Shown: positions 7,357 to 34,422 of the stretch, one piece after another
How positions within the stretch are numbered: the stretch's first letter is position 1
How the letters are laid out: the number at the start of each line of letters is the position of its first letter
Source of the DNA: a virus
Taxonomy: Duplodnaviria; Caudoviricetes
DNA: 49,061 nucleotides
IMG/VR virus record: IMGVR_UViG_3300042983_000001
Span: 1-49,061 of that record
Strand: one strand, 5' to 3'
Notes under the pieces: generated by a model
Told to the model about the DNA's origin: nothing
Seen by the model: only the letters and a program-made list of their open reading frames with translations
Database searches by the model: none
Program-made: the position numbers and the translations under genes

Positions 7357-8321
7357 CAGGTGTAGAAATCAGAGGTGGAATTGCCGGATACTGAGTTAGA
7401 GCGATTGTTCAACTGGTCCATGTAATAGCGTTGCTGGTACATATTGCCGAGGTTGTTCAACGCTCCAGAATAAGCATTAGACCCGGCAATAGAGGCAGCC
7501 CCTCTCGCATTCGCCGAGCCGATAAGGTTGTTGCCGATCTGATTGGAAGCATTCGCCCCGAGCTGAGCAGTGGTGGTGGTCGCGGCTTGGCCTATCCCAG
7601 AAACTGCGGCAAGCTTGTTAAATTCGTTCGCCTGATCCCCAACAAACCGCTGTTGAGAAGCGCCGGCCTGATTGCCGACATAGTCAGATGCGAATCGCTC
7701 AAGAGCTTTAATTGCACCGCCAGACTTAGACATTCCTCTAGCAGCGAACATCCTATTTACGCCCTTGGTGCCTTCATCAAGTCCGAATCTCATTGATGCC
7801 TGCACTACCGGGTCGTTCTGGAAGTCGTCCATGGTGAAACGGCGCAGCAAGTCGCCGCCACCGCCACCTACTCCAGGCTCACCAGGAGAAGTGGCAAGGC
7901 GATCGTTATAGCTCTTGACATAATCTGCGTAGCCCTGATCCGGGCCATTTTTTTGCAGTTCCCTTGCTATGAGATCATTTACGGATTGCGGATCGCCCTT
8001 TACGCCGATGTCGCCGAGATCAATAGTTTTATTGGTAGGATGATAGTCGCTTGCAATCCACTCCTCCTTGCTTTTCAATGGTTCGCCGGATATAGCAGTC
8101 GGAGATATTCCCATCCGTTGACGCAGTCTGTTAAGGCTGGCTTGCCCGGCATTTCGCCATGGCGCAAGGTCTTCGCGGCTTAGATCGAATTGCCGACGAG
8201 TTTCGGCCGTGGCTTCCTTGGAAGCATCAGCCTGATCCTTGGATGCATCTTTTGCTCCTTTTCCAGAAAGATAACCACCGATCAGAGTCCCAGCCCCAAT
8301 AGCAACATAGCCCCAGCTCAT
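7356..8321 (-). CDS. DNA transfer/pilot protein (P22 gp7-like)
   Basis: Hydrophobic Gly-rich N-terminus; 'DLAPWRNAGQ' and 'DPVVQ...G..GV....AARG' motifs. Confidence 0.75.
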   Translation of the reverse strand: MSWGYVAIGAGTLIGGYLSGKGAKDASKDQADASKEATAETRRQFDLSREDLAPWRNAGQASLNRLRQRMGISPTAISGEPLKSKEEWIASDYHPTNKTIDLGDIGVKGDPQSVNDLIARELQKNGPDQGYADYVKSYNDRLATSPGEPGVGGGGGDLLRRFTMDDFQNDPVVQASMRFGLDEGTKGVNRMFAARGMSKSGGAIKALERFASDYVGNQAGASQQRFVGDQANEFNKLAAVSGIGQAATTTTAQLGANASNQIGNNLIGSANARGAASIAGSNAYSGALNNLGNMYQQRYYMDQLNNRSNSVSGNSTSDFYT

Positions 8322-8809
8322 GATTTGTCCTCTATCAATGGGAACTCAGCGTAGTTTTTTGCAATGATGAATTCCTCTAACTTCTCCAAATCGGTTTCGT
8401 TTGTGGGATTGGCATGTATCGTCGTCCAAACGGTGTCTTCATGCACAAATACCGCCCGCTTAGTTCCTGCTGTAGATACCATCGTGATCGGCCCTACTAG
8501 TCGTTGACGGCCGTCCTTTGTAAGAACGGTTACGTCTCCGTACGAGATAAAGTTCACATGATCGTGTCTGTGAATCTTTCCAACGACTATTGTGCCTTTT
8601 GGTAAGAAAATCTCCCGCATGTACACGCCAGTGGCGAACGTATGTTTTAGCGGGAGGTCAATCTGCTCAATCCCGAGCCTCTCTAAAACACTGAGGATTT
8701 CTTTTTGCAACGCCTCAAGCGTTTCGCGTATTTGCGCCTCGCCTTTGGGCTCATGGAAGGATAGGATTTCTCCCTCTAGAACAGCCGGCAGGATGGCTTG
8801 TTCGGTCAT
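8318..8809 (-). CDS. Cupin-fold phage protein
   Basis: 'HTFATGVYMREIFLPKG...GKIHRHDH...GTKRAVFVHEDTVWTTIH'. Confidence 0.7.
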   Translation of the reverse strand: MTEQAILPAVLEGEILSFHEPKGEAQIRETLEALQKEILSVLERLGIEQIDLPLKHTFATGVYMREIFLPKGTIVVGKIHRHDHVNFISYGDVTVLTKDGRQRLVGPITMVSTAGTKRAVFVHEDTVWTTIHANPTNETDLEKLEEFIIAKNYAEFPLIEDKS

Positions 8810-9177
8810 TGTTGGAACACGATCACCGTATAGATTTGGGACGCCGGATCAATGGCTCCAGCTGAGTAGTTGGCTGCCCTGATCGTCGCCGTATCGTCAG
8901 CGGTTATGGTTCCGTCCAATATGATTCCGTTGACTGCAGTAGTCGGTCTGACCAAGACTGCATCGCCAATCCTGGCGCCGCTTATGGTTACCGTCGTTGT
9001 TGCCTGGGTCTGCGCGAGTATGTTTCCGAAGTCGTGAGTCTTTTTCACGGTCAAGGTCGTATGCCAGCCCGCCAAAGCCCGCATGACGGCTTGAAACCAG
9101 TTTCCCCATTCCGAAGTCCAAGTGGCGGTGTCGCCAGCGACACTCAATCCCTGGCGAAGCGGTACGGGAAATTTCAC
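8806..9177 (-). CDS. Small tail-associated structural protein
   Basis: Follows the gp10-like gene; beta-rich C-terminus. Confidence 0.55.
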   Translation of the reverse strand: MKFPVPLRQGLSVAGDTATWTSEWGNWFQAVMRALAGWHTTLTVKKTHDFGNILAQTQATTTVTISGARIGDAVLVRPTTAVNGIILDGTITADDTATIRAANYSAGAIDPASQIYTVIVFQQ

Positions 9178-10583
9178 GAGTATCCTGGCGTGTAATCCAA
9201 CCCAGCTCCGACAATTACCCGTTTAACTGGATCTGTGATCGCTAGCTCGAATATATAATCTCTAGCCGTTCCGAGCCTTCTGAACTCAGCGCGTTTGGGA
9301 TATTTTCCAATCTTTCCCATAGAAGCCCTCAACTCATTCCCATAGGAATGCCCGCCATCCCTCGAAATCCTCAGCATCACTTGCGGATCTACACCTTGAC
9401 CGGAAACAAGACCGACGCCTGATTCGAAGTCCACGAATAGCCTGTTGATCGTCACCCGGTCGTAATTCTGGAAAAAGTGCCTCGTAACAATGACCGACCT
9501 GATCGCATCTCCGTTGTCCGAATAAAGCGTCGGGTCGATCATGTAGACGTTTCCGTTAGAATAATCGAAAAGGCGCGGCTTGTTGACATAGTCGAGACAC
9601 ATTTCTCCGCGGTCTCTTTCCCCATTCAGACCGTATTGAACCTCTCCCCAAAGACCTGATAAAGCATCGAACTCGAATGATTTCATTCCGGTCGGAAAAT
9701 TGATCTGGTAGAACGGATGCCCGCCTTGCATCCTGGAAAATCCTGTTGCATCGGATACCGTAGTAAAGCTGTTTATGATCGAATCGAGTTCCGGATTTGA
9801 TAAAGGCGTAGGTGTATAGCCTTTCAGCATCATCACCTGAACCTGACCCATTTTGTTTTTGAACAGGCCCGCCAGGGAGTCATTGAATTTAGCGAGTGAC
9901 CATCTCGCAGCCAATCCGTACTCAATCGTGGAGCCTCTTACCGGAGCAAAAGGAAAATCCTGCGCTCCAGTGTTACCCCAAAACTCTGTCGTCGCCTCTC
10001 CGAAAAGTGAGATTTCGCCGTGGTCCGCAAATACCCTGACCAATCCATCAGGGGCACTTTCAGCGCTCGCCACGTCCAGCGCATCCCAGGTCGTGCCGTC
10101 TGAGGAGATCTGGAACGAATCCCCGGAACCCTGATCGACGATAAATTGCCCGTCGAGCCAAGTGCAGGTAGTGGCGGCATCCGGATAATCGGCAGCGGCC
10201 ACGACCGCAAAGACGTTGGTTGCCAGGGTGAATGTATAACCGGCAGTCCCGTCTGTTATTAGGATTACTACTCCGTCAGTCGTCAGATCAACTCGGCCGG
10301 TGGTTGTAGACAGCGTCCCTCTGCTGGTTTGGGTCCCGGCGTTGTTGATTTCCCAAAGGGTCCCGCGATGGACCACGAACCCGCGGACACCTACCGCTAT
10401 TGCTCCGCGTGCTGGGGTGTCGCCGAACGTCGTAAAGAGCGACCTTCCGGCCCTCCCGTAAAACGCTATCCTTGTCTTATCCCCGTCAGGTTGTATTTCC
10501 CCGTACAGGTTGATTCTTTGCTGCGCAGTGACATTCGGTGATTTGCCTTTGAATCCGCCCCCAAACAACGGGACAATCGGCAT
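9174..10583 (-). CDS. Packaged-DNA stabilisation/tail hub protein (P22 gp10-like)
   Basis: 'ASAESAPDGL', 'TEFW.NTG', 'GHPFYQINFP', 'PQVMLRISRDGGHSYG'. Confidence 0.85.
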   Translation of the reverse strand: MPIVPLFGGGFKGKSPNVTAQQRINLYGEIQPDGDKTRIAFYGRAGRSLFTTFGDTPARGAIAVGVRGFVVHRGTLWEINNAGTQTSRGTLSTTTGRVDLTTDGVVILITDGTAGYTFTLATNVFAVVAAADYPDAATTCTWLDGQFIVDQGSGDSFQISSDGTTWDALDVASAESAPDGLVRVFADHGEISLFGEATTEFWGNTGAQDFPFAPVRGSTIEYGLAARWSLAKFNDSLAGLFKNKMGQVQVMMLKGYTPTPLSNPELDSIINSFTTVSDATGFSRMQGGHPFYQINFPTGMKSFEFDALSGLWGEVQYGLNGERDRGEMCLDYVNKPRLFDYSNGNVYMIDPTLYSDNGDAIRSVIVTRHFFQNYDRVTINRLFVDFESGVGLVSGQGVDPQVMLRISRDGGHSYGNELRASMGKIGKYPKRAEFRRLGTARDYIFELAITDPVKRVIVGAGLDYTPGYS

Positions 10584-11524
10584 CAGTCTCGACCTGGTTC
10601 GAAAAACACGTCGGTCGTCTCAGGGTCGGTGTTCTGCGCTATGCTCAAAGCCTCGTTCCTTGCGATCATAAGCTCTTGAGAAACCGGCTTGCCGTACATC
10701 GGGCAAATGTCGATCGCCAGTTGAGCCACGAGCGGCCGATACCATTCCTGTGGATAGTCGGGGGTGTCGGTCAAGGCATCGAAGTCCTCAATCGTCCCCA
10801 GGAACACGATCCTTATTACCTTGGTGACGTCGTCTGGCTCGATATCAAGATAGAGCGTCCCATTGGTCAAAGTCGCTTCGTAGGCCAGCCAGGAAGGCGT
10901 GCCGTCAGCCGTTTTGTCGGGTATGGCCTCGTAGTCCTCACGCTTCTTATTGACTACTAGAGGCGTGTCTAGCGTGTTTGTATCTCGTATAACCGCGGTC
11001 AGGAGGTTGAGCGGTCTTCTTACCTTGGTCGTATAGGCAAAGATTCTAGCCCCACTAGCCGCAGCTCCTAGCGAGTTCGCCGGCAGCGTAATCGTCCCTG
11101 GAATAGCGCTTATGGTCGTCCAGCCGATAGACCCGCTCGAAAGGACGAGCCCGATGTTGTCCCCTATGGTCATTCCTGTGGTGCTGGCAACCGTGATGCT
11201 GGTTGCGTTTGCGGCCTTCGAGACACTTAGCGTCGTGGTGACGTAGGACGACGTTGCGTTATCACCAGAAGGTCCTAGGGAATAGACGGACTGGCCTTTT
11301 TGCAGGAAGACATAACCCGTTTTACGGCTCCACGTCTTCAGGTTCCCACCGAAATCTGCCTTCCCCTGCCATTGCTTCACCAGCATGTTGAGCTTGCGCG
11401 AGCAGTCGGCAATATCGTCCGCGTTTGGCGTTTGATCGATGCCCAAGATCGTGGCGTCCTTCATGGCCTGCGTAATGATTTCGTCCCGGTTAATTGAGAA
11501 ATCAACCGAACCGGAAGTCGTCAC
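10583..11524 (-). CDS. Head-tail adaptor (gp4-like) with an inserted Ser/Thr-rich beta domain
   Basis: 'LNMLVKQW' and 'DYPQEWY' motifs; upstream of gp10-like gene. Confidence 0.7.
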   Translation of the reverse strand: MTTSGSVDFSINRDEIITQAMKDATILGIDQTPNADDIADCSRKLNMLVKQWQGKADFGGNLKTWSRKTGYVFLQKGQSVYSLGPSGDNATSSYVTTTLSVSKAANATSITVASTTGMTIGDNIGLVLSSGSIGWTTISAIPGTITLPANSLGAAASGARIFAYTTKVRRPLNLLTAVIRDTNTLDTPLVVNKKREDYEAIPDKTADGTPSWLAYEATLTNGTLYLDIEPDDVTKVIRIVFLGTIEDFDALTDTPDYPQEWYRPLVAQLAIDICPMYGKPVSQELMIARNEALSIAQNTDPETTDVFFEPGRD

Positions 11525-13080
11525 GCAACTTTCCTTTCAAACTTCGTCAGATGAGCCTGGATCGCGTCCCACATGGCATCTTCTGAAATGTCCTCCTGAC
11601 AAGCCGCCACTCCGATCTTTTTCCCACGCCGGCAACTATCGAAACCGTAATGCATCATGTGGCACGGGTAACAGGAGGTATTCGCAGGAGTCAGGGAGAT
11701 GCAATTTACCCAATCACGACTCAGGTTCTCGACCGAGCTATGCGAGAGCGTCAAGACTTTGGGGACTCCATCCATCGCAGCCGCATTCATAACTCCAGTC
11801 TCAGGACCGACAACTAAATCGGCCACGGAAATGAAAGACAAGCTCTGACGGATCGACCAGATACCGCTTTTCGGGATGACTCGCTTTTCGTTCTCCCACG
11901 GATATTCGATCATCTTGCATAGCTCATCACCGACGAATACGACCCGGCAATCATGATGCCTAATCATCAGCCGCGCAATAACCGCATCGACGTGCGGCCA
12001 TACCTTATGAACCGACGACCCAGCCAGCGACCAAAGGATCACCGGCCCATCGGTTTTCATTCCCTGGCGCTCTTTCCTCGCCCAGGTCTTTTCTTCCTCT
12101 GTCGCGTAGAACTTCTGCCGTGAAGGCATTGGCACATCCGCCAGCTTGTGATGGAACTCGACGTAATTCTGGTTCAGCATTGCGTGTCTGACTTCATGCG
12201 GCCAGCGCGAGGCAATCTTGTCTTGTGTGGCTAGAAACGTACCCTCTACTGACTCGCACAGGTTGATCCACTTGTTATATTTTTTCTCCTCATGCTTCCA
12301 GAAATCACCGAGGGCGGCATTAGGGACTTGATCAACGTCCTGGAGAATCACTTTGTCTATGTGTGGATCGTTCTTGACGACGGCGTAACCCCTGGGGACC
12401 GTGTACAGGGTGATGTGATAGCCCTCTTTTTTCAGTCCCGGGAAGATGCTGGAGGTCATCAGCAAATCACCGAAAGCTCCATACCTAACGACCGCACAAG
12501 TCTTCTCCGGCTTCGGGTCCTTGTAGGACATCCGCCATTTATCGCCCTTGATTTTCTTGTAGACCTGAAAGAAGGAGTATTCGGTATCCTCGTTCCGCTC
12601 CTGGTTATCGATCAAATCCCACGTGCCTTGAGGGACCAACTTCTTCATCACATCGATGATGTCCTCTGGCAGGAAGTCGTGCTTATGGTCGGGGTTAGAA
12701 CCAGGGACTCCGATGTTTGGATAGAAATTCTTGTGCGGGAGGTAGAGTAGCAAAAACCCTCCAACCTTCACCAGACGCCACCATTCTTTTAGCGCGTCTT
12801 CGTGGTCAACAATATGTTCCAGAAGGTGCGAGCTGAATACGAAGTTCATCGACTGCGAGGCGAACATCTCCAACTTCTCGCATGTCTTCACTACGAAATC
12901 CGGCTGCATCCTCGTTCCGAAGAGCTTGATATCGGCTAGGTTGTCCACCCCGATAAAATGCGGGAAGGCTTTATGCGGACCACAACCAAGGTCCAAGCCC
13001 ATCCCTCGGGTGTATTGGACAAGCTCCCAGCGAATCTTCCCGGCTTCGTTGCCTTCCGGGTCGTCAATTTTCCAGACCAA
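11521..13080 (-). CDS. Fusion of class I SAM methyltransferase and GT9-family glycosyltransferase
   Basis: N-terminal 'GLDLGCG', 'FSSHLLEH', 'WWRLVKVGG'; C-terminal 'VRYGAFGDLL', 'ADLVVGPETG', 'CYPCH'; TTG start. Confidence 0.85.
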   Translation of the reverse strand: MVWKIDDPEGNEAGKIRWELVQYTRGMGLDLGCGPHKAFPHFIGVDNLADIKLFGTRMQPDFVVKTCEKLEMFASQSMNFVFSSHLLEHIVDHEDALKEWWRLVKVGGFLLLYLPHKNFYPNIGVPGSNPDHKHDFLPEDIIDVMKKLVPQGTWDLIDNQERNEDTEYSFFQVYKKIKGDKWRMSYKDPKPEKTCAVVRYGAFGDLLMTSSIFPGLKKEGYHITLYTVPRGYAVVKNDPHIDKVILQDVDQVPNAALGDFWKHEEKKYNKWINLCESVEGTFLATQDKIASRWPHEVRHAMLNQNYVEFHHKLADVPMPSRQKFYATEEEKTWARKERQGMKTDGPVILWSLAGSSVHKVWPHVDAVIARLMIRHHDCRVVFVGDELCKMIEYPWENEKRVIPKSGIWSIRQSLSFISVADLVVGPETGVMNAAAMDGVPKVLTLSHSSVENLSRDWVNCISLTPANTSCYPCHMMHYGFDSCRRGKKIGVAACQEDISEDAMWDAIQAHLTKFERKVA

Positions 13081-13090
13081 TCACACCCCC

Positions 13091-13119
13091 AAAGAAGAAC
13101 GGCCCCGAAGGGCCGTTTT
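13091..13119 (-). terminator. Rho-independent terminator after the capsid genes
   Basis: AACGGCCC-TTCG-GGGCCGTT followed by CTTCTTT. Confidence 0.8.
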
Positions 13120-13120
13120 G

Positions 13121-13522
13121 TTACGACGTCACCGCAGCGCCAGGAACCAATGCGTACTCAACAGAGCATCCCAGTTGAATCGTCGCGTCGGTGCCGGCGT
13201 TGTTGATATCCAGGCAGTCCCCAACAGCAAGGGTGAAGGTGCCGAGGATGTTGGTGCTAGCGATTGCCGCCGACCCGTAAGTCGTTAATACATGGGTCGT
13301 GGTTCCCGTGCCATTCGCATTGATCTTCAATGCGGTGATGGCATTGGCAATAGTTCCGGCAGTCTTCGGTTTGAAGTTGTACGCCTTCACCAACATATCG
13401 GTGAAAGCCACAAACCGATGAGCTGAGATAGTCCCAGCAATGCCGCTCCCCGAAATTGGGCCACCAGAGGTGTAACGCGCACGATAAACAGGATCGTCAT
13501 ACGACATGCTTTTTGTTGCCAT
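13121..13522 (-). CDS. Putative capsid decoration/cement protein
   Basis: 133 aa, T/A/G-rich, immediately after the major capsid gene; strong RBS (AGGAG). Confidence 0.6.
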   Translation of the reverse strand: MATKSMSYDDPVYRARYTSGGPISGSGIAGTISAHRFVAFTDMLVKAYNFKPKTAGTIANAITALKINANGTGTTTHVLTTYGSAAIASTNILGTFTLAVGDCLDINNAGTDATIQLGCSVEYALVPGAAVTS

Positions 13523-13595: not shown

Positions 13596-14603
13596 TTAAG
13601 CTGCTGACTCCCACTTCACGATGCGGGCGTTGGCGACGTTGTTTGCGATGTTCGACTGAATGCTCGCAAACCCGCCGAGGTAGTACCAAGCCACACCTTT
13701 CGAACGTCCATAGTCTGTCGGGATCTTTCCTCGCATCTCCTCGGGGACCGCGATAGCTTCCGCTGCCGTGTCCTCGCCGCAGAAGAAAATCCAGTCCGAC
13801 AGGCCGTTATCCCAGGAGTCCGAGACGTTGTTGAACGTATCGAATGTCGTGGTATTGTCAGCACCGCCGCGCGGGATATTGGTCTGCTCGACATAGCGCA
13901 TGTTGTCGTACCGCCCGATCTCCCCATACATCAGCTGCCTAAACCCTTCGGTCGTGTATTGGAATACCTGCTCCAGATTGTTCTTCAGGGTCCGGAAGGT
14001 GGACGGCCAAGCGATGGCGTAATAGTCGTCCTCCGTGTAGGCCGGAATGTTCCGCTCCTTCATGAAGTCCACCACGAGCTTGGTATGCGGAAGCCCAAAC
14101 GCGATGCTGTTGGTCGCCGTCACCGTCCCCGTGGTGCTGATATGCAATGAGGTCGTTGACGTGCCATTGAGTGCCTGCACGGCAAGCAGCGTGTTGTTGA
14201 ACTGCGCATGCGCTGAAGCGTCGAACCATTTCTTGGCGTCGTTCTTCAGCACCTTGTTGACGATCGTCTTGACATCGTGATACGACAAATCGTCAAGCTT
14301 CCCCGAATACGGAACCGAGTTCCCCGCCTCCGTCAGGGTCAAAGTCCCCTGAACGATGGTGAAGTTAGTTTCCGGCATCGTGGCGGTTTCCGCCAAGCTC
14401 TGAGCCGCCCTCACTGCTACATCCTGGTAGATGTCCCAGGTGAAGATGTCGCCCTTCTTTTTTCCGCCCAGAGAGGCATCCTTCACATCACAGAACTGGC
14501 GAAAGCGCGTCATCGGCTGAACCGCCGCGCGAAGGTCTTTCGACAGATTCAACGAATAGAGGAACCCGCCTAGGCTGTTTGTCAGCCAGACTTGTCCTGC
14601 CAT
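13596..14603 (-). CDS. Major capsid protein (N4-gp56-like family)
   Basis: 'MAGQVW...RFRQFCD', 'EAGNSVPYSGKL', 'GEIGRY', 'DYGRSKGVAWYYLGGF'; follows the scaffold gene. Confidence 0.85.
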   Translation of the reverse strand: MAGQVWLTNSLGGFLYSLNLSKDLRAAVQPMTRFRQFCDVKDASLGGKKKGDIFTWDIYQDVAVRAAQSLAETATMPETNFTIVQGTLTLTEAGNSVPYSGKLDDLSYHDVKTIVNKVLKNDAKKWFDASAHAQFNNTLLAVQALNGTSTTSLHISTTGTVTATNSIAFGLPHTKLVVDFMKERNIPAYTEDDYYAIAWPSTFRTLKNNLEQVFQYTTEGFRQLMYGEIGRYDNMRYVEQTNIPRGGADNTTTFDTFNNVSDSWDNGLSDWIFFCGEDTAAEAIAVPEEMRGKIPTDYGRSKGVAWYYLGGFASIQSNIANNVANARIVKWESAA

Positions 14604-16247: not shown

Positions 16248-17057
16248 TCACAATATAATTACATTGCTTGGAAGGATAACCAAGCCGAGCGTTAAAGCCT
16301 TCGCCACAATTGCCGAAATGATGGCGGCTTCTACTGTCGCTTGCGTAAGGCTACTGGGTAACGACACTTCGACCTCTTGCTGTCTGCCCGTAGCAATATC
16401 GGCCGAAACATCATCTCCAAAGAACGTGGCCGAATAAACTATCCTTTGTAGATTTACTCCACCAAGTCCAGCATTTGCTCGATAGTTTGCTATAGCATTT
16501 ACGACAGGTCCGGCAGTGCCAGTGCAACTCCATTCCAAGAGCCGTGTGTCGAGAGCATTGCCGTAGCCCCACACACCGGGCGCTCCGGAAGCCAGCGATG
16601 CGTCGGTCCCTGAGAACTGGATCACACCGTTTTTCTTGCTCGTTACGGTGGTGCCGACTACACTGATTTCAATATCGTCACCTTGGGCGAAACCGCCGTG
16701 GCTGCCGAGTAAGGTCGGTACTCCATTGACACCCTTCTGGGTAGTCGAGCTAATAGAATGCCCCACTAAGAAATATGCGCTTAGTGAGCCATCTAGCGCG
16801 CATCGCACAGCGACGCCAATCTGGCTGTTAGCAGACGCTTCCCGCTCTACAGTTCCACGCGAAAGCTGGTCGTTGGCGAATGAAGCACCGCTGTATCTGG
16901 CGCATACGTACTCGCTGGCTCCTAGATTCGCCGCGAGCGCATTAGACTGGATCACAAAACTGCTCGTCAACGCGCTCGGATAGCTAGGGAGATTTATAAA
17001 AGGCCCGTGCGCGGTAAGCGCTACTCCGTTCGTGTCAGTGAAAGCATCGGCTATCAT
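16248..17057 (-). CDS. Putative virion protein with lectin/ConA-like beta-sandwich
   Basis: 'DAFTDTNG..L..H', 'GDDIEISVVGTTVTSKKNGV...TDASLASGAPGVWG'; start ATG 17057. Confidence 0.55.
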   Translation of the reverse strand: MIADAFTDTNGVALTAHGPFINLPSYPSALTSSFVIQSNALAANLGASEYVCARYSGASFANDQLSRGTVEREASANSQIGVAVRCALDGSLSAYFLVGHSISSTTQKGVNGVPTLLGSHGGFAQGDDIEISVVGTTVTSKKNGVIQFSGTDASLASGAPGVWGYGNALDTRLLEWSCTGTAGPVVNAIANYRANAGLGGVNLQRIVYSATFFGDDVSADIATGRQQEVEVSLPSSLTQATVEAAIISAIVAKALTLGLVILPSNVIIL

Positions 17058-17650
17058 AGAGTCCCCAACGACCCGATGGAGATCGGAGTCGCACCCCACT
17101 GATCACCCAAAAACTTCAAGCCCTGCCGGTATAGCCAGCTAAGCGAGATGCCGGTGAAGTCGTATCCACGAATGTCCGCTGCCGCCTTGAGGCCCTGGCG
17201 AACCTCTAGCGGGATGTCGTTGATGAGCGTGTCGAGCGTGTAGCCAGGCTCGATGATTCTCCTGTTCGCAATGCGGTTATAGCACTGCGCGAAGAGCATC
17301 AGTTGAGCGACGGTTCGCAGCACTACCCTAAACGTCATTCCGATATCGACCCATCCTGTTGGGATATTCAGCACCTCCAGCTTCGAGCGCACCGTGTCGC
17401 GCTGCGCCGCGTTCGCAATCGTGTCGTCGATGTTCAGCGGCGCCGCAGTCACGTCCGCGTTCGCGACGAGCGTGGTGTGCTGGGCGTCGGACACGTCAGC
17501 CACCACCAGACATGTCGGCTCCAGGCCGTAATCGAGGAATCGAAAGATCGCATCCACGCCGGTCGGATTGCCTGAAATGAGCCCGTCGAATTTCATGTAT
17601 TTCGGCCCACGATCACCAATGAGCGGCATGATGTAGTAGCGGACTGTCAC
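17054..17650 (-). CDS. Hypothetical protein
   Basis: 198 aa ORF with ATGA coupling to the next gene. Confidence 0.6.
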   Translation of the reverse strand: MTVRYYIMPLIGDRGPKYMKFDGLISGNPTGVDAIFRFLDYGLEPTCLVVADVSDAQHTTLVANADVTAAPLNIDDTIANAAQRDTVRSKLEVLNIPTGWVDIGMTFRVVLRTVAQLMLFAQCYNRIANRRIIEPGYTLDTLINDIPLEVRQGLKAAADIRGYDFTGISLSWLYRQGLKFLGDQWGATPISIGSLGTL

Positions 17651-17659
17651 GAAAACACC

Positions 17660-18445
17660 TTAAGCGCCTACGTAATAAGCGCAGTTGCCGCGCCACAGCA
17701 CAGCGGCTCCTGGGACCGGCATTACGATTGTCGTATTCGTATTCGCCACGCTGCTCTTGATCGGCTTGGAGAAGTCATTACGCACGTCGATCTGCGTGCC
17801 GCCGGCAATCATCGCGTTCCCAACGCTCCACGCTGGAGACCCGGTCAAATTTGTGCTCGTTATAACCAACGTCGCGGTGCCGGCAAGCGCCGCCGTAGCA
17901 TTGCGCGTTATGTCCAGCATCGTGAGGTAGTGGAATAACCCAGCACCGGCAGCCGGAAGCGTGATCGTGGCGCCGGTATTTGCCGCTGCCGTGACCGTCA
18001 CCCACAATTGCGCCGGGAAATCCTTGCCGTAGATAATGAGGTCGGCGATCGACCCACGAGCCGCAACGACTACAGTTCCCGACGTGTAGGCGGAAACGCG
18101 GCAACGGATGCGCCGAATTCCCGTAACCCCTACCGTGTACGTCTTGGCGAGCGTCGTCGTGATGACGACCGCAGCTAGATAAGCCTCCGTCAGAATATCG
18201 AGCGCCGGGAGGCCGATGTAGTTGGTGCCGTCTACCGTACCCTCGAAAACAAGCGTTGCGTTCATCGCCGCCGTGCGCAGATCGAACGTCGCAGTGGAAG
18301 CGCCGTTAAGATCCATGACGACTTCGCCGTTAAGAGCCGACAGCGTCGCAGTGATCGGGCGCGCGTCGGTTACGGATTCATTCGTGACATAGTCGGGGAA
18401 CAACCCCCTGATCTCGTTACCGCGCGCATCAACAAGTTGTGGCAT
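17660..18445 (-). CDS. Putative structural protein, beta-rich
   Basis: T/A/V-rich; 'LVFEGTVDGTNY' and 'IRCRVSAYTSG' motifs. Confidence 0.6.
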   Translation of the reverse strand: MPQLVDARGNEIRGLFPDYVTNESVTDARPITATLSALNGEVVMDLNGASTATFDLRTAAMNATLVFEGTVDGTNYIGLPALDILTEAYLAAVVITTTLAKTYTVGVTGIRRIRCRVSAYTSGTVVVAARGSIADLIIYGKDFPAQLWVTVTAAANTGATITLPAAGAGLFHYLTMLDITRNATAALAGTATLVITSTNLTGSPAWSVGNAMIAGGTQIDVRNDFSKPIKSSVANTNTTIVMPVPGAAVLWRGNCAYYVGA

Positions 18446-18446
18446 G

Positions 18447-19133
18447 TCAGCCGACCAAGTAATTCAATTTGAAGGCTCCTGACAATTTGCTCGCATCCTG
18501 CGAGTAAAGTTCGGCTGTGAATTGACCAGTACCAGCGACGGCGTTAAAACCTACCTGCCCCATCCCAGGATGATTGGCGTCGGACTGCGCGCAGTTTCCC
18601 CATCCGAGATCGATTTGAGAACCGGTCGTCACCCCGGCATCGGTGATCGTGAACGATGCCTCCAATGCGGGGGTCGCAACGGTCACTGTCGTCGCCTTGA
18701 TGTCCGTCGAGCCAGCCCCGGGCGCAGCACCGACTACCGTAGCGCCGACACGCCGCAGGAATTCACCATCGGCTACGGCGCCGACGACAAGCGTAGTAGG
18801 GCCTGCGGTCTCTCGAATCCCTCGCGCTTGGGTTACGGTCGGGCTCGGGTAAGTGCCGCCAAGATCTCCACTTGCGGCGTCTCCGTCAATGACGGCAGCA
18901 GCAGCTACGGCAGCCGCAGCGCCGGAGGCATCAAAGTCTGTCGTGGCCGCAGCTGCTGCCGACCCGAGTGTTGGCTTGCCTGTCAGATCGGCATAGGCCC
19001 CGGTCTCAGCTACCGCGGCAAGGCCGGTGACTGCATGGCTACTCGGGGAAACGTAATCTACGCCATAGACCTTGTCCTCTATCCCGCTATCGGGAGAAAC
19101 AAGCGCCTTGGTGTGAGTTACTGAGACGGTCAT
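18447..19133 (-). CDS. Fibre-like structural protein
   Basis: 'LAAVAETGAYADLTGKPTLG' and 'ASGDLGGTYPSPTV' fibre repeats. Confidence 0.65.
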   Translation of the reverse strand: MTVSVTHTKALVSPDSGIEDKVYGVDYVSPSSHAVTGLAAVAETGAYADLTGKPTLGSAAAAATTDFDASGAAAAVAAAAVIDGDAASGDLGGTYPSPTVTQARGIRETAGPTTLVVGAVADGEFLRRVGATVVGAAPGAGSTDIKATTVTVATPALEASFTITDAGVTTGSQIDLGWGNCAQSDANHPGMGQVGFNAVAGTGQFTAELYSQDASKLSGAFKLNYLVG

Positions 19134-25086: not shown

Positions 25087-26145
25087 TCATGTGGAACTCA
25101 CCACCTCTATTTTCTGCTCCTTCGGCTCACCCAAATAGGTGAACCCGAAGCGTTCATGGTTATGACCAGCCATCAATCCGTCCAGTACAGCCGCCCGCAT
25201 GGTGAAGTCACTGAGCGCTTTGTAATGTATCGATATAGCACTCCGAACCTCCATGATCCGGCTTTTCAAGACGCTGGCAGGATGGGCGTCCAATAGCGTT
25301 GCCAGCCCTTCGACATGCTTCCACAGCTCCGGATGGCTATCATTGGGGTGATTCCCGTACTGACTGATCATGCAGGTAATAAGCCTGTCCCATAGAAAAT
25401 AGGAGTGGTAGCGAAAGAATACGTTGTCGATCGGCGGCTTTAAGATTCCACGCCTCACCATGTCGTGCAGGGCTTCGTCAACGTAGAAATACCTTGTGGC
25501 CGTTTGGTTGCTACTCCACCGTATTACAGTGTCCGGCGTGGTCTGATTGGCTTGGTTGTCTACCAGGGGCATGTCAATGAACATTGCAGGGGAATCGTGA
25601 AGGGCTTCCAACAATCCGCAGGACTGAGGGAAGGCATTCTTCGAATAGAACTCCCAGGACGGCAAATTCACCGCCTGTTTTAATTTCTCCGTCCTCACGA
25701 TGTTGCAGGTTATGAAGCCGGTCATGTCCAACCAGCCCAAGTCACTGCATAGCTCGAACAGGTTAGGCCGGGTGACAATCGACTTTGAATCCTCGGATCG
25801 AATCTTCTCTGCGACGTGGATAAAATCTAACTTGGCCGTTTTCAGGACTTCGGTGATAAGCGCCATGGCTCCAGGCATGAGAATGTCGTCATCCCCAAAG
25901 GTCCAGGTCCACTCCGTTTCCGGGAGGTTGAATGCGTCTTTGAAGTTGTCCTGGAAATCCACGTGGAGTTCGCGGCGAACATGGATTAGGCCAAATTCCT
26001 CCGTCATCCGGTCCAGGACTTCGGGCGTTTCATCCGTTGAGGCGTTGTCCGATACAACAATCCTGCCGCCTTGTTCGGCGATAGATCGAATGCAAACTTC
26101 AAGCTGCTTGGCTCTGTTCCAGGTCGGTATTGCGAAGGTAATCAT
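25087..26145 (-). CDS. Glycosyltransferase family 2
   Basis: 'ITFAIPTWNR', 'VVSDNASTDET', DxD motif 'GDDD'. Confidence 0.9.
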   Translation of the reverse strand: MITFAIPTWNRAKQLEVCIRSIAEQGGRIVVSDNASTDETPEVLDRMTEEFGLIHVRRELHVDFQDNFKDAFNLPETEWTWTFGDDDILMPGAMALITEVLKTAKLDFIHVAEKIRSEDSKSIVTRPNLFELCSDLGWLDMTGFITCNIVRTEKLKQAVNLPSWEFYSKNAFPQSCGLLEALHDSPAMFIDMPLVDNQANQTTPDTVIRWSSNQTATRYFYVDEALHDMVRRGILKPPIDNVFFRYHSYFLWDRLITCMISQYGNHPNDSHPELWKHVEGLATLLDAHPASVLKSRIMEVRSAISIHYKALSDFTMRAAVLDGLMAGHNHERFGFTYLGEPKEQKIEVVSST

Positions 26146-26893
26146 AGATTCTAGTGAGCGATTCGTTCAAAGAAATACCGGGATGGTAAAAACGCACGTC
26201 CGGCTGATAAACAGTTGATGGCTCAGATCCACAAGCAACCGTCGCCCTATACATCTTAGCAATGCGATTAGCCAAATCCTCCATAGTTACTGGCTCATTA
26301 CCCGCTACCTCATAGAGCCAATTTTGCTGTCCGTCCAGGATTCTCAGCAGGCAGTTTGCCGCGTCATCTACGTGCATATAGGAGCGGATACTCTGCGGGC
26401 TTTTCACGACAACATGACCGCTACTCGCCATCTTGAAAAACTGCCCAGCCGCATACTGTCCGTCCAAGGGCATTTCCTCGCCTATCAGGGAGTAAAGCCG
26501 CACGATCCTAGCGCTCTCGCATAGTTTTTCCGCCATTGCCTTAGCACGCCCGTATGGCGTGTCAAGTGTTGCGGCTCCGGAGCTTACGAATAGAACCCGC
26601 CTGGCGCTTGTCCACTCCATCACTCGGCGCGCGCCTTCCACAATCGTGTAGTAGTCAAGATACGGAGTGTTCCTGATTAGCTCGTTCGCATCCCCTGCAG
26701 CATGGATTACGTCAGTGAAGGTGTCGATAGGGAACTCGACCTCGGTTATATCCCCTTTCCAATACTCCACCTTGCCGCTTCGTTCCCTCCGTGTCAGGCA
26801 AACGATCCGCTCGGTATCGCTGCGCTTGAGCAAAGCACGCACAATCGCCCTGCCGAGAAATCCAGTTCCCCCAGTTATGAAATATCTACGCAT
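26099..26893 (-). CDS. NAD(P)-dependent epimerase/reductase (extended SDR)
   Basis: 'ITGGTGFLG', 'SSGA', YxxxK 'YGRAK', 'RSYMHVDD'. Confidence 0.9.
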   Translation of the reverse strand: MRRYFITGGTGFLGRAIVRALLKRSDTERIVCLTRRERSGKVEYWKGDITEVEFPIDTFTDVIHAAGDANELIRNTPYLDYYTIVEGARRVMEWTSARRVLFVSSGAATLDTPYGRAKAMAEKLCESARIVRLYSLIGEEMPLDGQYAAGQFFKMASSGHVVVKSPQSIRSYMHVDDAANCLLRILDGQQNWLYEVAGNEPVTMEDLANRIAKMYRATVACGSEPSTVYQPDVRFYHPGISLNESLTRIYDYLRNTDLEQSQAA

Positions 26894-27990
26894 GGACTCA
26901 TGTCCGCAAATTCAGGCGACACAAACTTACTGTCTCTGATAATGGTAGCGAGCTTGGGAAGATAGGGCTGGTCTGGATCGATAAAGACCTCAATTAGCAC
27001 CGGCCTGTCCGATCCCATCACAACCGGCATTACAGAGTCGAAATCCTTCCGTGTCCGTATAGAATTCGACGCTATGCCAAAAGCTCTACTTACCTCCACA
27101 AAATCAGGACACGAAACTCCGCTCGCTTCGTTCGATCCTACATACGCCATCCCAAGGTTCTTCTGACTTGCCCGTATCATTTGATAGCCGTCATTTGAGA
27201 AGACGATTATCTTTATCGGCAGGTTGTGATGGCGGACGGTTTGTAGTTCCTGAAGGTTGAACATCATTCCGCCGTCTGTGTTCAGGCACAGCACCTCGCC
27301 TTTGTTTCGTGCGAACGATGCTCCTATTGCTGCCGGCAGTCCAAACCCCATCTCCCCTAGGCCCGTAGATGTTATAAGTCTTTGCGGTGGTCTCAGCTTT
27401 AACGCCTGATGCGCACAGAGCAATCCAGCCCCTACGTCGGTGACAATGATTTGATCGGGCTTTAGATGCCGTCCCAGCCGCTCCATGAATCGGTACGAAT
27501 TGATGTAGCTGGTATCGTCATGTGTCGGCGATTCTACCCATGGATATTTAGCGTGCCATCCGCAGCACTGATTCCACCATTCTTTCGGCGACTTGATAGG
27601 CTCGCCGGCAAGACACTCAAGAATAAAATCCCCCGCATCGCCGACTACAGTTTTCTCCGGATTATGTTTTGAGGCTTCTTGTGGATCGATGTCAACCACA
27701 ATCAGCTTGGCCCTGATTTTCGAGATGTCATAGCCGGTCTGGAGCAGGGAAAGCCTTGTGCCGATGGCTAGGATTACATCCGCCTCGGCAATGATCTTGT
27801 TTGCGCAACGCTGACCGTAGACACCCGCTCGGCCGAAGATCATAGGATGTTCCACCATGTCCGCCCCGGCCCATGACAGGATAGTCGGGATGCTGTAGTG
27901 CTCTAGAAACGCCTCCAACAGTTGAACGGAGCCGGCAAGCCTGATCCCATGACCTAACCACATTACTGGCCGCTTAGCCTCTCTCAGCAT
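26875..27990 (-). CDS. TPP-dependent enzyme, central + C-terminal domains (acetolactate synthase/YerE-like)
   Basis: 'AKRPVMWLGHG', 'GLGEMGFGLPAAIGA', TPP motif 'TDGG...NDGY'; start ATG 27990. Confidence 0.85.
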   Translation of the reverse strand: MLREAKRPVMWLGHGIRLAGSVQLLEAFLEHYSIPTILSWAGADMVEHPMIFGRAGVYGQRCANKIIAEADVILAIGTRLSLLQTGYDISKIRAKLIVVDIDPQEASKHNPEKTVVGDAGDFILECLAGEPIKSPKEWWNQCCGWHAKYPWVESPTHDDTSYINSYRFMERLGRHLKPDQIIVTDVGAGLLCAHQALKLRPPQRLITSTGLGEMGFGLPAAIGASFARNKGEVLCLNTDGGMMFNLQELQTVRHHNLPIKIIVFSNDGYQMIRASQKNLGMAYVGSNEASGVSCPDFVEVSRAFGIASNSIRTRKDFDSVMPVVMGSDRPVLIEVFIDPDQPYLPKLATIIRDSKFVSPEFADMSPCVDIS

Positions 27991-28496
27991 TGCGCGGCCT
28001 GTATGTCGGTTGGAATGTCCAGCCACACCGGACCAAAGCGCCGCAGCAATGCTCTGCTGAGTCCATATTCTAGCCAATGCTTCGCCGTCCTGGCATCTTG
28101 AATCATGTGCGCAAACTTCGTTATCTTCTTCATCATGCACACGCTATCGAATCCTTGAACTCCCCAGGCCCTCAATTCCCAATGAGTGTACGTCGGTTCA
28201 TTACCAGAAATGATGATTGTTGGAATGGAATCCATATATGCAGACACAATCCCCGTGACTGCATTAGTCGATCCTGCCCCCGTGGTGACAAGGACAACCG
28301 AAAGCCTCCCGGATACACGATAGTAAGCAGCTGCGGCCATGACTGCCGCTTGCTCATGATGCACGCAGACAAGCTCTGTCTTTCCCAACCTGGATATGGA
28401 ATCGAATAGGCGTACATTGCCGGCCCCTATAATGCCGAAGGCGTGTTTAATATCTTTCTCAGCCAGCCATTCGGCTATCGAATCAGCTACGATCAT
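27984..28496 (-). CDS. TPP-dependent enzyme, N-terminal (PYR) domain
   Basis: 'HHEQAAVMAA' (catalytic Glu), 'VTTGAGSTNA', 'GPVWLDIPTDIQ'. Confidence 0.88.
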   Translation of the reverse strand: MIVADSIAEWLAEKDIKHAFGIIGAGNVRLFDSISRLGKTELVCVHHEQAAVMAAAAYYRVSGRLSVVLVTTGAGSTNAVTGIVSAYMDSIPTIIISGNEPTYTHWELRAWGVQGFDSVCMMKKITKFAHMIQDARTAKHWLEYGLSRALLRRFGPVWLDIPTDIQAAQC

Positions 28497-28678
28497 TTAG
28501 CTTCCCACTTCCTCGCGTTCGCCCCGCATTCAGCACCGCTCACCCGGCGCGTTTCACATAGCTCTGGCTCACCAGTAACGCGATTGACTAATTCAGGCTG
28601 CTTGCAGCAATGCGCGTCGGCAGAAACTGAACTCTTAATCACAACGTGATACTTGCAGTCCAAGCAGATTTTTATCAC
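28493..28678 (-). CDS. Small Cys-rich phage protein
   Basis: 'CLDCKY...C...C.TRR....ECG'; GTG start overlaps the rfbH stop. Confidence 0.55.
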   Translation of the reverse strand: MIKICLDCKYHVVIKSSVSADAHCCKQPELVNRVTGEPELCETRRVSGAECGANARKWEAK

Positions 28679-29883
28679 AGGAAAAACGCCTCTAACTTTT
28701 GACACACGAACTCAAGCATTTCCTCGCTCAATCCAGGCCACACGCCGAGCCATAGCGAATCGTTCATGACCCGATCAGTATTCAAAAGGTCGCCATGGAC
28801 ACGGAACTTTCTGCCCTTCATATACGGTTGCTTTATTATATTTCCTGCGAACAGCAATCTCGTGTCGATTCTGTGACTCGACAAATACTCCTGCAGCGCC
28901 GCTCGCTCCCCATGCCTCTTGATCGTGATCGCAAACCCAAACCATGACGGGTCGGAATTATGAGTCGCTTCCGGCAAGATGACGAAATCCTGCAAGCCCT
29001 CAAGTCTCTTTCGTAGAAATGCCCAGTTTCTTTTTCTCGTCGCGATGAATTCCGGAAGCTTTTCGATCTGAGCCAATCCGCAGGCCGCCTGCATGTCAGT
29101 CATCTTCAGGTTGTAACCCAAGTTCGAATAGGTGTACTTGTGGTCATAGCCGTAAGGCAAAGACCCCAGTTGCCAATCGAATCTCTTCCCGCAGGTATTG
29201 TTATTTCCCGGTTCGCACCAACAATCACGCCCCCAGTCGCGAATAGATTCTATGATCTGCTTCAGCTCTGGCCTACTGGTAAAAACGGCCCCGCCTTCGC
29301 CTGTCGTAATGTGGTGCGCTGGATAAAAGCTGCACGTAGAAATCTGCCCGAATGTCCCGACATTTTGACCCTCGAACTTAGAACCCAGCGCATCGCAACA
29401 GTCCTCTATCAGCCAGACTTCATATTTATCGGCGATGTGTTTCACTTGAGCTAAATTGAACGGATTGCCCAAGGTATGCGCTAGAACGATAGCGCCAGTC
29501 TTACTCGTCATCGACTCTTCCAAGCGCAAGGTATCGACGTTGTAAGTCGGGAGGGTGATGTCAACAAACACCGGGACTAATCCGTTCTGTAGGATGGGAT
29601 TTATAGTAGTCGGAAATCCAGCCGCTACGGTTACAATTTCATCACCTGGAACAATTCGCTTCGCAACCGCACTTACCGCAAGCAGATTCGCCGATGAACC
29701 AGAATTCGCGGTTAGGGCATGCCCGGTCCCCATGAACTGGGCGAGCTTCGATTCAAAGGCTTCGTTGAATCTCCCACTTGTCAACCAGCCGTCTTCAACG
29801 GCTTCGTGCATCAGAGCTTTTTCTGCAGCTCCGACAATCTTCCCGCTAGATGGAATAGGGGTTACACCCGGTTCAAACGCCAA
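28675..29883 (-). CDS. rfbH: CDP-4-keto-6-deoxyglucose 3-dehydrase E1 (RfbH/DdhC)
   Basis: 'SFYPAHHITTGEGG' (His in place of the PLP Lys) and Fe-S motif 'GRDCWCEPG...TCGKRF'; 'YDHKYTYS'. Confidence 0.9.
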   Translation of the reverse strand: MAFEPGVTPIPSSGKIVGAAEKALMHEAVEDGWLTSGRFNEAFESKLAQFMGTGHALTANSGSSANLLAVSAVAKRIVPGDEIVTVAAGFPTTINPILQNGLVPVFVDITLPTYNVDTLRLEESMTSKTGAIVLAHTLGNPFNLAQVKHIADKYEVWLIEDCCDALGSKFEGQNVGTFGQISTCSFYPAHHITTGEGGAVFTSRPELKQIIESIRDWGRDCWCEPGNNNTCGKRFDWQLGSLPYGYDHKYTYSNLGYNLKMTDMQAACGLAQIEKLPEFIATRKRNWAFLRKRLEGLQDFVILPEATHNSDPSWFGFAITIKRHGERAALQEYLSSHRIDTRLLFAGNIIKQPYMKGRKFRVHGDLLNTDRVMNDSLWLGVWPGLSEEMLEFVCQKLEAFFL

Positions 29884-32645: not shown

Positions 32646-33140
32646 TTAAACCATGTCCGACGGGACGGAGTTGTAATCCTTGAGCCATTCCTCATCGATT
32701 TGGGGTTCTGGCGGTTTCTTCGAAATCTCCGCTTCTATCTTCCTGCCTAATTTCTGGCTAGAGAATTTCTCTATTGCCTGGCATGCGCTAAGCGTTTCCT
32801 TTGGCACGAACCATTTGCCTTTGTAGCGACAACGAGAAACCGGAAGCGGCGCCAGCTCATACGTCGGGCTGGCGTTGTTCGATATGCCGTTGTGCAGAAC
32901 AAGCACGATAGCTTCGCCGCCGCCGGCTTGAACTCGGTCACAGACTCTCTCAAGGGCGAGCCTCTGCCCATTGGGCAATTCGGCTCCGAGATGTTTCGTC
33001 TCCATGAAGATAAAGACCTCGTCATCGAACTCGATAAAGCCGTCGATGTCCGTTGGCGTGATAGTCCCGAAGCGCATACCTTTGAAGTCCGCACGCTGCC
33101 GAGCGAATCGGATATTGCGAATAACGCCGCGCTCAGTCAT
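32646..33140 (-). CDS. Putative PD-(D/E)XK nuclease-fold protein
   Basis: 'PTDIDGFIEF...FIFMETK...GQRLALER'. Confidence 0.5.
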   Translation of the reverse strand: MTERGVIRNIRFARQRADFKGMRFGTITPTDIDGFIEFDDEVFIFMETKHLGAELPNGQRLALERVCDRVQAGGGEAIVLVLHNGISNNASPTYELAPLPVSRCRYKGKWFVPKETLSACQAIEKFSSQKLGRKIEAEISKKPPEPQIDEEWLKDYNSVPSDMV

Positions 33141-34039
33141 GAGGATTTAAGCGGGAAAGAAATACAGCCGAACTCGGAAAATCTCGCAGCGAAACTCTTG
33201 GCGCGCTTGCCAAAATAGAAGAACGTCTGGCCTAATGGCGGCGAAGCTGTGAAGCCATCGGAACGCTCAAAGTTGACGCGCCCTCTTGTGTGCATGAATG
33301 CCGTACAAGCTCCATGCGCTTCATGCCACCAAGCCGTATCGCAAGAGTTATGCGTTAGAAGCACCGCCTCTGTGACTGAGCGAGACGCCACGGACACGAC
33401 AAGGCGCGTGACGAACTCGGCGATGGCTTGGCCGTATGGCGGATTGAGCCACACTCGCCCGCCCCATTCTTGCTCTAAACCGCTCTCAGTGAAATACTGC
33501 TTGGCGCGGACGGTCTTCTGCGCGGCTTCTGATGTGGCAGGATCTAGGTCAATGCTGCCCATGAGCTTTCTGGCGGCCTCGATGTATTCTGCTGGCGTGT
33601 ACCATTCGATCTCGCCAGTGAAGGCGTTTCGGTGCTTGTTACCGTAGAACGGCGAAAGCGTGATGAAGATGTTCGGATCTGGCGAGTCTCGAAGATCGGA
33701 AATTCGCGCCTCGAATTCAGACTCTGGAATAGCGGCTACGGATTGCCAGCGCTCTGCGGTATCTCGTGATATGCCTGCCTCATCGCAAAAACTAGCCGCA
33801 GCGGTGCGGGTAGTTTTCCCCCTGCCTCCTTTTTCGCGCGGCAACTCTGCTATCAACGCGCCAGTAACGCGAACCGACCGCACCATCTTTTCGGCGTACT
33901 TGTTGACGATGCCGCGCTCCGCGCCGACAGCACGCGCCATTGCTACGGCCTTGTGGAATGTTTTGACGAATTGCGCGCCCTGCTCCGGCGTCTCGATGAG
34001 CGCCAGGTTGAGTTTGTCGGCGACGACAAGTTGATTCAC
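33137..34039 (-). CDS. Phage N6-adenine DNA methyltransferase with N-terminal HTH-like domain
   Basis: 'EWYTP', 'IDLDPA', 'VWLNPPYG', 'TAWWH', 'GRVNF'; GTG start at 34039 overlaps the cII stop. Confidence 0.85.
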   Translation of the reverse strand: MNQLVVADKLNLALIETPEQGAQFVKTFHKAVAMARAVGAERGIVNKYAEKMVRSVRVTGALIAELPREKGGRGKTTRTAAASFCDEAGISRDTAERWQSVAAIPESEFEARISDLRDSPDPNIFITLSPFYGNKHRNAFTGEIEWYTPAEYIEAARKLMGSIDLDPATSEAAQKTVRAKQYFTESGLEQEWGGRVWLNPPYGQAIAEFVTRLVVSVASRSVTEAVLLTHNSCDTAWWHEAHGACTAFMHTRGRVNFERSDGFTASPPLGQTFFYFGKRAKSFAARFSEFGCISFPLKSS

Positions 34040-34422
34040 TTCGCCACCTTCAGGCGCAGCTCTTCGATCCGCGGTTCCAGCGTTGCTTCTTTTTTCTTCG
34101 TCGCCAGATATTCCCGCAGGAGCTTGGTGAGTTCGTCTTCCGGCTCTATCGGGAGCGGGATTGAATACCCGGCCTCGGCGCAGAAATAGTTCATCGCCTC
34201 GTGACAGCCGGCCTCGCGCGCCCATTTCATGAGCAGGAGAACTTGCTGAGGATCGAGCTTCGCGAGGCGGTCTTTGTTGAGACAGTCGTTCAGGTAGGAC
34301 TGCGCGTCCGACATTGTTTTTTCAGGCCATAGCTTGATGCCGACCGCTTTTGTTCCACCGAGACACTTCACCGCCGACTTCAGGGCGTCGTACAAATCTT
34401 CGTGGAAAAGCGCCTGTTGCAT
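34036..34422 (-). CDS. CII-like regulator
   Basis: 'GGTKAVGIKLWPEK...LNDCLNKDR..KL'; downstream of cro. Confidence 0.65.
   Translation of the reverse strand: MQQALFHEDLYDALKSAVKCLGGTKAVGIKLWPEKTMSDAQSYLNDCLNKDRLAKLDPQQVLLLMKWAREAGCHEAMNYFCAEAGYSIPLPIEPEDELTKLLREYLATKKKEATLEPRIEELRLKVAK

Follow-up and report, generated by a model that had tools for sequence, protein, structure and literature searches.

The principle that a phage can glycosylate its own virion is already known from the actinophages. In mycobacteriophage Corndog (Cluster O), an O-methyltransferase and glycosyltransferases (gp35-38) are encoded in the head operon, and their products are described as absent from virions (PMC4351075). 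Enzymes of the Corndog type are reported in two other articles (PMC11600133, PMC12619734), both citing Freeman 2023, to modify the capsid and the tail tube; PMC12582341 has this reference too. Methyltransferase and glycosyltransferase genes likewise occur together in the head operon of the virus record IMGVR_UViG_3300042983_000001, a stretch of 49,061 bases with direct terminal repeats that was analysed whole and is called the window here. Unlike in Corndog, the core enzyme is a single fusion of a methyltransferase and a GT9 glycosyltransferase (MT-GT9; 11521..13080, minus strand), relatives of the phage encode heptose and branched-sugar synthesis, the hosts appear to be Gram-negative, and glycosylation is predicted from the genes.

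We propose that MT-GT9 heptosylates and methylates virion proteins and that a GT2 glycosyltransferase optionally adds a branched sugar. We regard this reading as reasonably probable because of the slot next to the capsid gene in different heads, the conserved catalytic residues and the co-occurrence with heptose and GT2 genes. A protein O-heptosyltransferase is known in TibC, which relies on Asp110, Thr226, Lys230, Arg286 and Trp305, together with an iron finger formed by Cys339/342/358/370 (PMC4358343).

Fold and active site of the fused enzyme

The MT-GT9 gene has a TTG start and encodes 519 amino acids, with a class I S-adenosylmethionine (SAM) domain at about residues 1-180 and a GT-B/GT9 domain at about residues 190-519. 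Pfam matched both halves, with Methyltransf_11 at residues 44-111 (E 3.8e-9, above the curated cut-off) and Glyco_transf_9 (PF01075) at residues 304-440 (E 1.7e-5; 24.7 bits, cut-off 22), and a PDB sequence search with the single protein gave no significant match. In an AlphaFold model built from a 31-row alignment (predicted local distance difference test score 91), residues 190-514 were closest to GT9 structures (Z 24.4 for Veillonella 3tov, 23.4 for WaaF, 21.1 for WaaC and 19.8 for TibC), the next-best GT-B folds scoring 14.2 or less, and residues 5-179 matched class I methyltransferases (Z 14-16). The N-terminal domain has the DxGxG motif I, acidic motif II and Rossmann fold of class I SAM methyltransferases.

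A profile alignment to WaaF placed D205 on the catalytic Asp of the WaaF 'GD' motif and K359 on the lysine of 'KRWP'. Residue conservation was counted over 142 distinct family sequences, in ungapped rows: D205 was present in 141/141, K359, E279 and E427 each in 142/142, the four C-terminal cysteines (C470/C473/C483/C494) in 139-140 of 140-141, and the methyltransferase motif residues D30/G32/G34/D46 in 116-124 of 123-128. With the bacterial autotransporter heptosyltransferases (BAHT: TibC, AAH), MT-GT9 shares the GT9-like GT-B fold, an N-lobe catalytic Asp and a Ser/Thr-x3-Lys donor motif, and its C-terminal four-Cys motif is possibly the counterpart of theirs. The residue-level likeness to TibC (S355/K359, R411 and the cysteines) is one of spacing and not of sequence alignment, the cysteines following C-x2-C-x9-C-x10-C in MT-GT9 and C-x2-C-x15-C-x11-C in TibC; similar four-Cys motifs also occur in some WaaF proteins. 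Unlike in the BAHT enzymes, a Rossmann-type methyltransferase replaces the N-terminal beta-barrel, and the N-lobe fits WaaF better. Other features of the BAHT group are a thumb made of a beta-hairpin and a dodecameric assembly. WaaC and WaaF are among the best fold matches, and their GD, K and D/E-T/S-G motifs (the last at E427-T-G) align; what separates MT-GT9 from them is an identity of 14-19%, a score of 18.3 bits with the WaaF equivalog TIGR02195 (cut-off 134.6, not reached), the fused methyltransferase and the phage head-operon context. Having no TibC-type beta-barrel and falling short of the WaaF equivalog, MT-GT9 belongs to GT9 broadly, and to neither the WaaF nor the BAHT group.

The fold also bears on a different use of heptose by phages. 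Phage GT-B enzymes (GT53, in subclass III clusters) make mono- and di-heptosyl-methylcytosine and can adjoin structural genes (10.1101/2023.12.21.572611), and the window encodes a C5 methyltransferase; MT-GT9 might add (methyl)heptose as a hypermodification to phage DNA that has been replicated, around the time of packaging. The described DNA heptosylation needs 5-hydroxymethylcytosine from a C5 methyltransferase and an oxygenase and relies on a fold like that of the T4 beta-glucosyltransferase, which was not among the listed fold matches of MT-GT9. Among phages with MT-GT9 (carriers), a C5 methyltransferase was found in 7/42 (3/14 near-complete), and Tet_JBP in 0/40, in a scan whose positive control gave no match. 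The enzyme is not basic, with an isoelectric point of 6.6 (family median 6.3). Taken together, we consider a DNA target improbable. Separately, the window carries three DNA methyltransferase genes (33137-34225, 39187-39984 and 39981-40436), as well as a queuine tRNA-ribosyltransferase-like gene and a QueD homologue (43300-44375, plus strand), which suggest 7-deazaguanine DNA modification.

A slot between capsid and adaptor genes

The window comes from a short-tailed phage. Its structural genes include an SU10-type portal, an N4-gp56-like capsid of the HK97 fold and, for head closure and ejection, a module of the P22 type; it also encodes an integrase. The term 'P22-like', used for this phage in an earlier note made from the sequence, therefore suits the neck and ejection genes but not the portal or the capsid, the latter being about 50% identical to the capsids of PTXU04 and Bas95. 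All on the minus strand, the major capsid gene (13596..14603; phrog_1357) is followed by a gene for a Thr-rich protein of 133 residues (13121..13522), by MT-GT9, by the gene at 10583..11524 and by the head-closure gene (9174-10583; phrog_578). MT-GT9 ends in a stop codon that overlaps the GTG start of 10583-11524, which has no Pfam match and is, from its position, a probable head-tail adaptor, SU10_adaptor genes occupying the equivalent slot in relatives; the 133-residue product is a probable decoration protein. Pfam, fold and gene order agree with the earlier description of a two-domain enzyme within the head operon, the adaptor label being positional and the decoration label putative. Between the 133-residue gene and MT-GT9 lies a terminator-like site (13081..13120, minus strand) made up of an 8-bp hairpin with a UUCG loop and a U-rich run behind it. 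Such a site would reduce MT-GT9 expression relative to the capsid; compared with shuffled sequences the hairpin was not significant (folding z -1.4, 23/200 shuffles folding equally well).

Among 7,261 candidates, 3,082 clusters were homologous to MT-GT9, and we estimate that about 670 IMG/VR stretches carry it. The Atlas clusters nearest to it are 95-100% viral. In 50,697 records of cultured phages there was nothing beyond a weak methyltransferase match, and copies are present in prophage regions of four isolates. Carrier prophages of cultured environmental strains include those of Paraburkholderia sp. C35 (L100/L034; CheckV 96% complete), P. rhynchosiae WSM 3937 (L104), Aromatoleum anaerobium LuFRes1 (L119) and Pseudothauera rhizosphaerae (L117). 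Gene position was counted over 155 MT-GT9 loci, near-duplicates included. A capsid gene lay upstream in 119 (112 of the N4/SU10 type, at a median distance of 1.3 kb, and 7 of the HK97/lambda type), an HK97/lambda-type capsid lay downstream in 2, and no capsid was visible in 34, 30 of which have less than 4.3 kb of upstream DNA. The adaptor followed downstream in 114 loci, within 100 nt in 100 of them, and a fused protein of more than 430 amino acids was wanting in 13, a count that includes glycosyltransferase-only, split and cut-off copies. The slot is retained across unrelated head modules.

We also looked at the locus starting from the capsid, where MT-GT9 was present in 41 of 77 loci, absent from 3 in which the sequence extended to the adaptor, and undecided in 33; a scan seeded with non-carriers gave 47 of 78 without the gene, 11 with it and 20 undecided. 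The cultured phages Bas95, PTXU04 and Vibrio 219E41.1 have the same head type and no MT-GT9 gene. Because such loci and cultured phages exist, MT-GT9 is dispensable for this head type, yet it is very stably placed where present. This speaks to the possibility that the protein uses an inactive GT9 scaffold to serve the head as a structural part or chaperone, for which there is a parallel in subunits of the plant NDH complex that are GT9-fold proteins (7wff, 9grx) and with which the coupling to the adaptor gene would agree. The catalytic Asp and the donor-site residues are invariant, and same-head phages (the 47 loci and the three cultured phages) assemble without the gene, which makes such a role very improbable.

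The position of the gene also bears on the host envelope as a target. MT-GT9 could add heptose and methyl to the core of lipopolysaccharide (LPS), and the GT2 enzyme and the branched sugar could alter the O-antigen, either at a late stage of infection or during lysogeny, thereby blocking superinfection or keeping progeny from re-adsorbing to debris. The LPS-type GT9 enzymes are the best structural matches (Z 23-24 versus 19.8 for TibC, at a root-mean-square deviation of 9.6), which weighs against a virion target; RfbH and YerE-type enzymes make bacterial O-antigen sugars, and the phage has an integrase. An envelope target sits poorly with a gene that forms part of the head operon, overlaps the adaptor gene and keeps its slot across unrelated heads, since genes for conversion usually stand as units of their own. 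The carrier contigs fall into bins of metagenome-assembled genomes (MAGs), which may be wrong, from many unrelated groups of hosts, and no flippase or membrane glycosyltransferase was found among the neighbours scanned. We therefore consider modification of the envelope unlikely. Two loci tell against a virion role in another way: on contigs of alphaproteobacterial MAGs (L140, L145) the fusion lies among metabolic genes of the chromosome (TauD, FAA hydrolase, MFS), with no capsid seen.

Further modifying genes surround the slot in relatives. TylF, FkbM, GT4 and similar genes were found in 58/207 carrier loci and 0/53 non-carrier loci, a comparison biased by queries taken from carriers. One relative has, between capsid and MT-GT9 (L001:4269-9030), a GT4, a methyltransferase, a methyltransferase-GT4 fusion, a Gfo/Idh/MocA oxidoreductase and a hexapeptide acetyltransferase. 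Four phages (L036, L007, L150, L155) have two GT9-family genes each, and one of the two in L036 (L036:5866-7536) has a C-terminal extension that by eye is like a TylF-type methyltransferase. In the slot before the ejection genes, the window has a gene (8318-8809, minus strand) whose product shows, by eye, an HxH motif of the cupin type, where other carriers have a pair of Asp/Asn-hydroxylase and GNAT genes (L104:14899-15486; L108:9935-10390); the counts for genes of this slot are 25 and 12 among 207 carrier loci and 0 among 53 non-carrier loci, and their products possibly provide a second virion-modifying step. Downstream of the ejection genes, L070 (18081-19394) and 19 other carrier loci have a gene for a PurD-like ATP-grasp protein, which was not detected in the window.

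Heptose and branched-sugar genes

A nucleotide-heptose is likely to serve the GT9 domain as donor, a reading absent from the earlier note. Its first sign was one relative with an HldE-kinase homologue inside the head operon. Such homologues were found in 10/41 carriers (3/13 near-complete) compared with 0/24 same-head non-carriers, and without the record that prompted the search the counts are 9/40 and 0/24 (Fisher p 0.02, uncorrected for relatedness). One HldE carrier, L003, is among the nearest capsid relatives of the window. We read nine heptose regions, in which 63 of 137 open reading frames (ORFs) were scanned: GmhA was present in six, an HldE-type adenylyltransferase in six, GmhB in two, thiamine diphosphate (ThDP) enzymes together with a radical-SAM gene in four, and a second GT2 family in three. 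This second family adjoins MT-GT9 in six loci and lies inside heptose/ThDP/radical-SAM clusters in three carriers. These gene sets agree with a nucleotide-heptose donor and with the repeated, optional gain of branched-sugar synthesis. In four records (L418-L421), an HldE kinase, one or more ThDP enzymes and a radical-SAM/SPASM gene form one cluster, with GmhA in three and GT2 in three; these clusters are candidates for making a heptose that is branched or deoxygenated.

Several of these results weigh against a heptose donor. All HldE matches are below the TIGR02198 cut-off, 31/41 carriers have no match, and the 24 non-carrier controls are mostly of one clade. Moreover, MT-GT9 has ETG..N in place of the DSG..H of WaaF, and since the donor-site motif differs in this way, the sugar may be something other than plain heptose. 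No hldE was found in the window genome, and the heptose would therefore have to be supplied by the host in this phage.

The second sugar would come from a cluster that resembles the yersiniose A pathway, described as RfbH/E1, YerE and YerF (PMC9306805). All on the minus strand, the window has in one run RfbH, a CDP-4-keto-6-deoxyglucose 3-dehydrase (28675..29883; 650 bits, NCBIfam cut-off 423), the N-terminal domain of a ThDP enzyme as a separate gene (27984..28496), its middle and C-terminal domains (26875..28002; putatively YerE-like), a nicotinamide adenine dinucleotide (NAD)-dependent epimerase/reductase (26099..26893; putatively YerF-like) and the GT2 glycosyltransferase (25087..26145; likely the second sugar step). 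The set of RfbH, ThDP carboligase and reductase is, by sequence, of the yersiniose type, whereas the ThDP enzyme is split in two genes, unlike in the described pathway, and the product is predicted only. Neither a cytidylyltransferase nor a 4,6-dehydratase, the upstream pathway steps, was found in the ORFs scanned. The two ThDP genes overlap, the ATG of 26875-28002 lying within the end of the N-domain gene. A sequencing frameshift is unlikely as the cause of the split, because the usual linker is missing, the ATG overlaps the stop, and other phages show a like split (L420) or, in several with rfbH, very short gaps between the N and M domains. No close relatives of the window ThDP gene were found in the scan.

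The earlier note had looked to co-occurrence of MT-GT9 with the rfbH cluster in relatives, and this expectation failed: rfbH was found in 0/41 carrier records (0/8 near-complete; the positive control worked), and 1/50 rfbH records, drawn from 80 loci, had the full enzyme, so that an obligate link is rejected. The exception, G059, has MT-GT9, rfbH, an E1-type ThDP pair, a reductase and the same GT2 as the window, and the NAD epimerase was seen in these two alone among 40 carriers. Clusters of RfbH and ThDP genes are common in unrelated viral contigs without MT-GT9 (L156-L235) and are a separate, widespread branched-sugar module of phages; beside MT-GT9, such a cluster is an optional extra.

The GT2 gene is tied more closely to the slot. 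In all, 20 viral loci with a match to it were found, 8 of which match only the generic first 100 residues. Ten of the 12 long-match relatives, several of them near-identical, lie between capsid and MT-GT9; the other two are the copy in the rfbH cluster of G059 and one unresolved fragment. Of the earlier claim that MT-GT9 and the GT2 cluster jointly build a glycan on the particle, the link with GT2 is supported, and that with rfbH does not extend to the family. Since five records with the window's GT2 family carried no rfbH (0/5), which also counts against a branched second sugar, GT2 usually draws, to judge from these gene contents, on host sugars.

Candidate acceptors and the predicted modification

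The acceptor assignment rests on gene position and precedent, with the major capsid as the main candidate and the probable decoration protein as another. The earlier note had called the neighbouring structural proteins Ser/Thr-rich. Against 12.6% for all called window ORFs, Ser+Thr makes up 21.8% of 13121-13522, 19.5% of the adaptor and 16.1% of the capsid, and these three proteins are rich in Ser/Thr in other carriers too. Four accessory genes without family match between portal and scaffold (16248..19133, minus strand) are possible further acceptors, and the description fits three of them (16248-17099, 18.4%; 17660-18445, 18.4%; 18447-19133, 19.3%) but not 17054-17650 (11.6%). The decoration family has a median Ser+Thr content of 23.5%, and T57 and T74 do not vary among the 40 members aligned.

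Carriers and non-carriers differ in these proteins: capsid Thr is 10.5% (n=130) versus 8.2% (n=45), decoration Ser+Thr is 23.1% (n=79) versus 17.2% (n=42), capsid T73 is present in 95% versus 29% and T75 in 89% versus 16%, the capsid comparison covering non-duplicate capsids of 295-350 residues from decided loci. T157 is also conserved in carriers. The T73/T75 region is predicted by the capsid model to lie between strands 53-59 and 83-89, which we take to be the E-loop from HK97 topology. When relatedness was counted, on a capsid tree built without Ser/Thr-rich columns, the MT-GT9 state changed four times, with two supported pairs, and the pair test was null. With so few changes, Ser/Thr richness is not independent evidence, and co-evolution was dropped as independent support. 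As further points against the proposed acceptors, a nested loss (L374) keeps T10, T73 and T157, and a GTSTT loop considered as acceptor signal was rejected, occurring in non-carriers too. The decoration family was found in 107/130 carriers, another family in 3 and none was detected in 20, while the HK97-type carriers have no decoration family; the two families barely align (probability 5%). The decoration protein was therefore rejected as an obligatory partner.

The candidate status of the acceptor and the null Ser/Thr test, both of which count against our proposal, leave room for a target outside the virion late in infection, such as a host protein, a scaffold or assembly intermediate, or free nucleoside diphosphate (NDP)-heptose that is consumed or methylated; PurD-like, Asp hydroxylase and GNAT enzymes are also found in these operons. 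Such a target would leave unexplained both the fixed slot behind capsids of several families and why GT2, GT4 and sugar O-methyltransferase genes have been inserted there repeatedly, and we hold it to be improbable as well.

For virion glycosylation by MT-GT9, the reading that we prefer, the following course can be drawn up. The donor would be ADP-heptose or another NDP-heptose, which some relatives would make themselves. Asp205 would activate a Ser/Thr hydroxyl, after the example of Asp110 in TibC, on the capsid and/or the Thr-rich decoration protein and the adaptor during assembly. The methyltransferase domain would O-methylate the added sugar, an optional step, since glycosyltransferase-only and split forms exist. 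GT2 (25087-26145) would then add a branched 3,6-dideoxyhexose of the yersiniose type, for which RfbH, the ThDP enzyme and the reductase would draw on a CDP-sugar precursor of the host; in this phage the second-sugar step is the weaker part, and we put it forward only tentatively. As to purpose, our guess is an altered particle surface directed against adsorption, proteolysis or grazing.

No description of GT9-based virion glycosylation in phages that infect Gram-negative bacteria was found in the literature covered, outside which most subscription papers lie, and the MT-GT9 family is real, widespread and apparently undescribed. Viral NDP-heptose enzymes are known, and their purpose was left open in a 2024 commentary (PMC11461863). 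It is conceivable, at a level somewhat short of an even chance, that a widespread group of tailed phages with Gram-negative hosts has a protein O-heptosylation of its own, in which MT-GT9 primes capsid threonines with methyl-heptose for variable, LPS-like 'serotype' coats, bearing a self-made branched sugar of the yersiniose type in the present phage; these coats would be extended by interchangeable GT2, GT4 and methyltransferase genes and by phage-made donors (ADP-heptose, branched dideoxy sugars). The carrier prophages in cultured strains, which are not pathogenic, make the reading directly testable, with the cultured same-head phages lacking the gene as controls. If it is true, a use would be found for the virus-encoded NDP-heptose enzymes, and hundreds of environmental phages would have LPS-like sugar coats, with consequences for the stability and adsorption of particles, for their recognition by immune systems and for virion proteomics.

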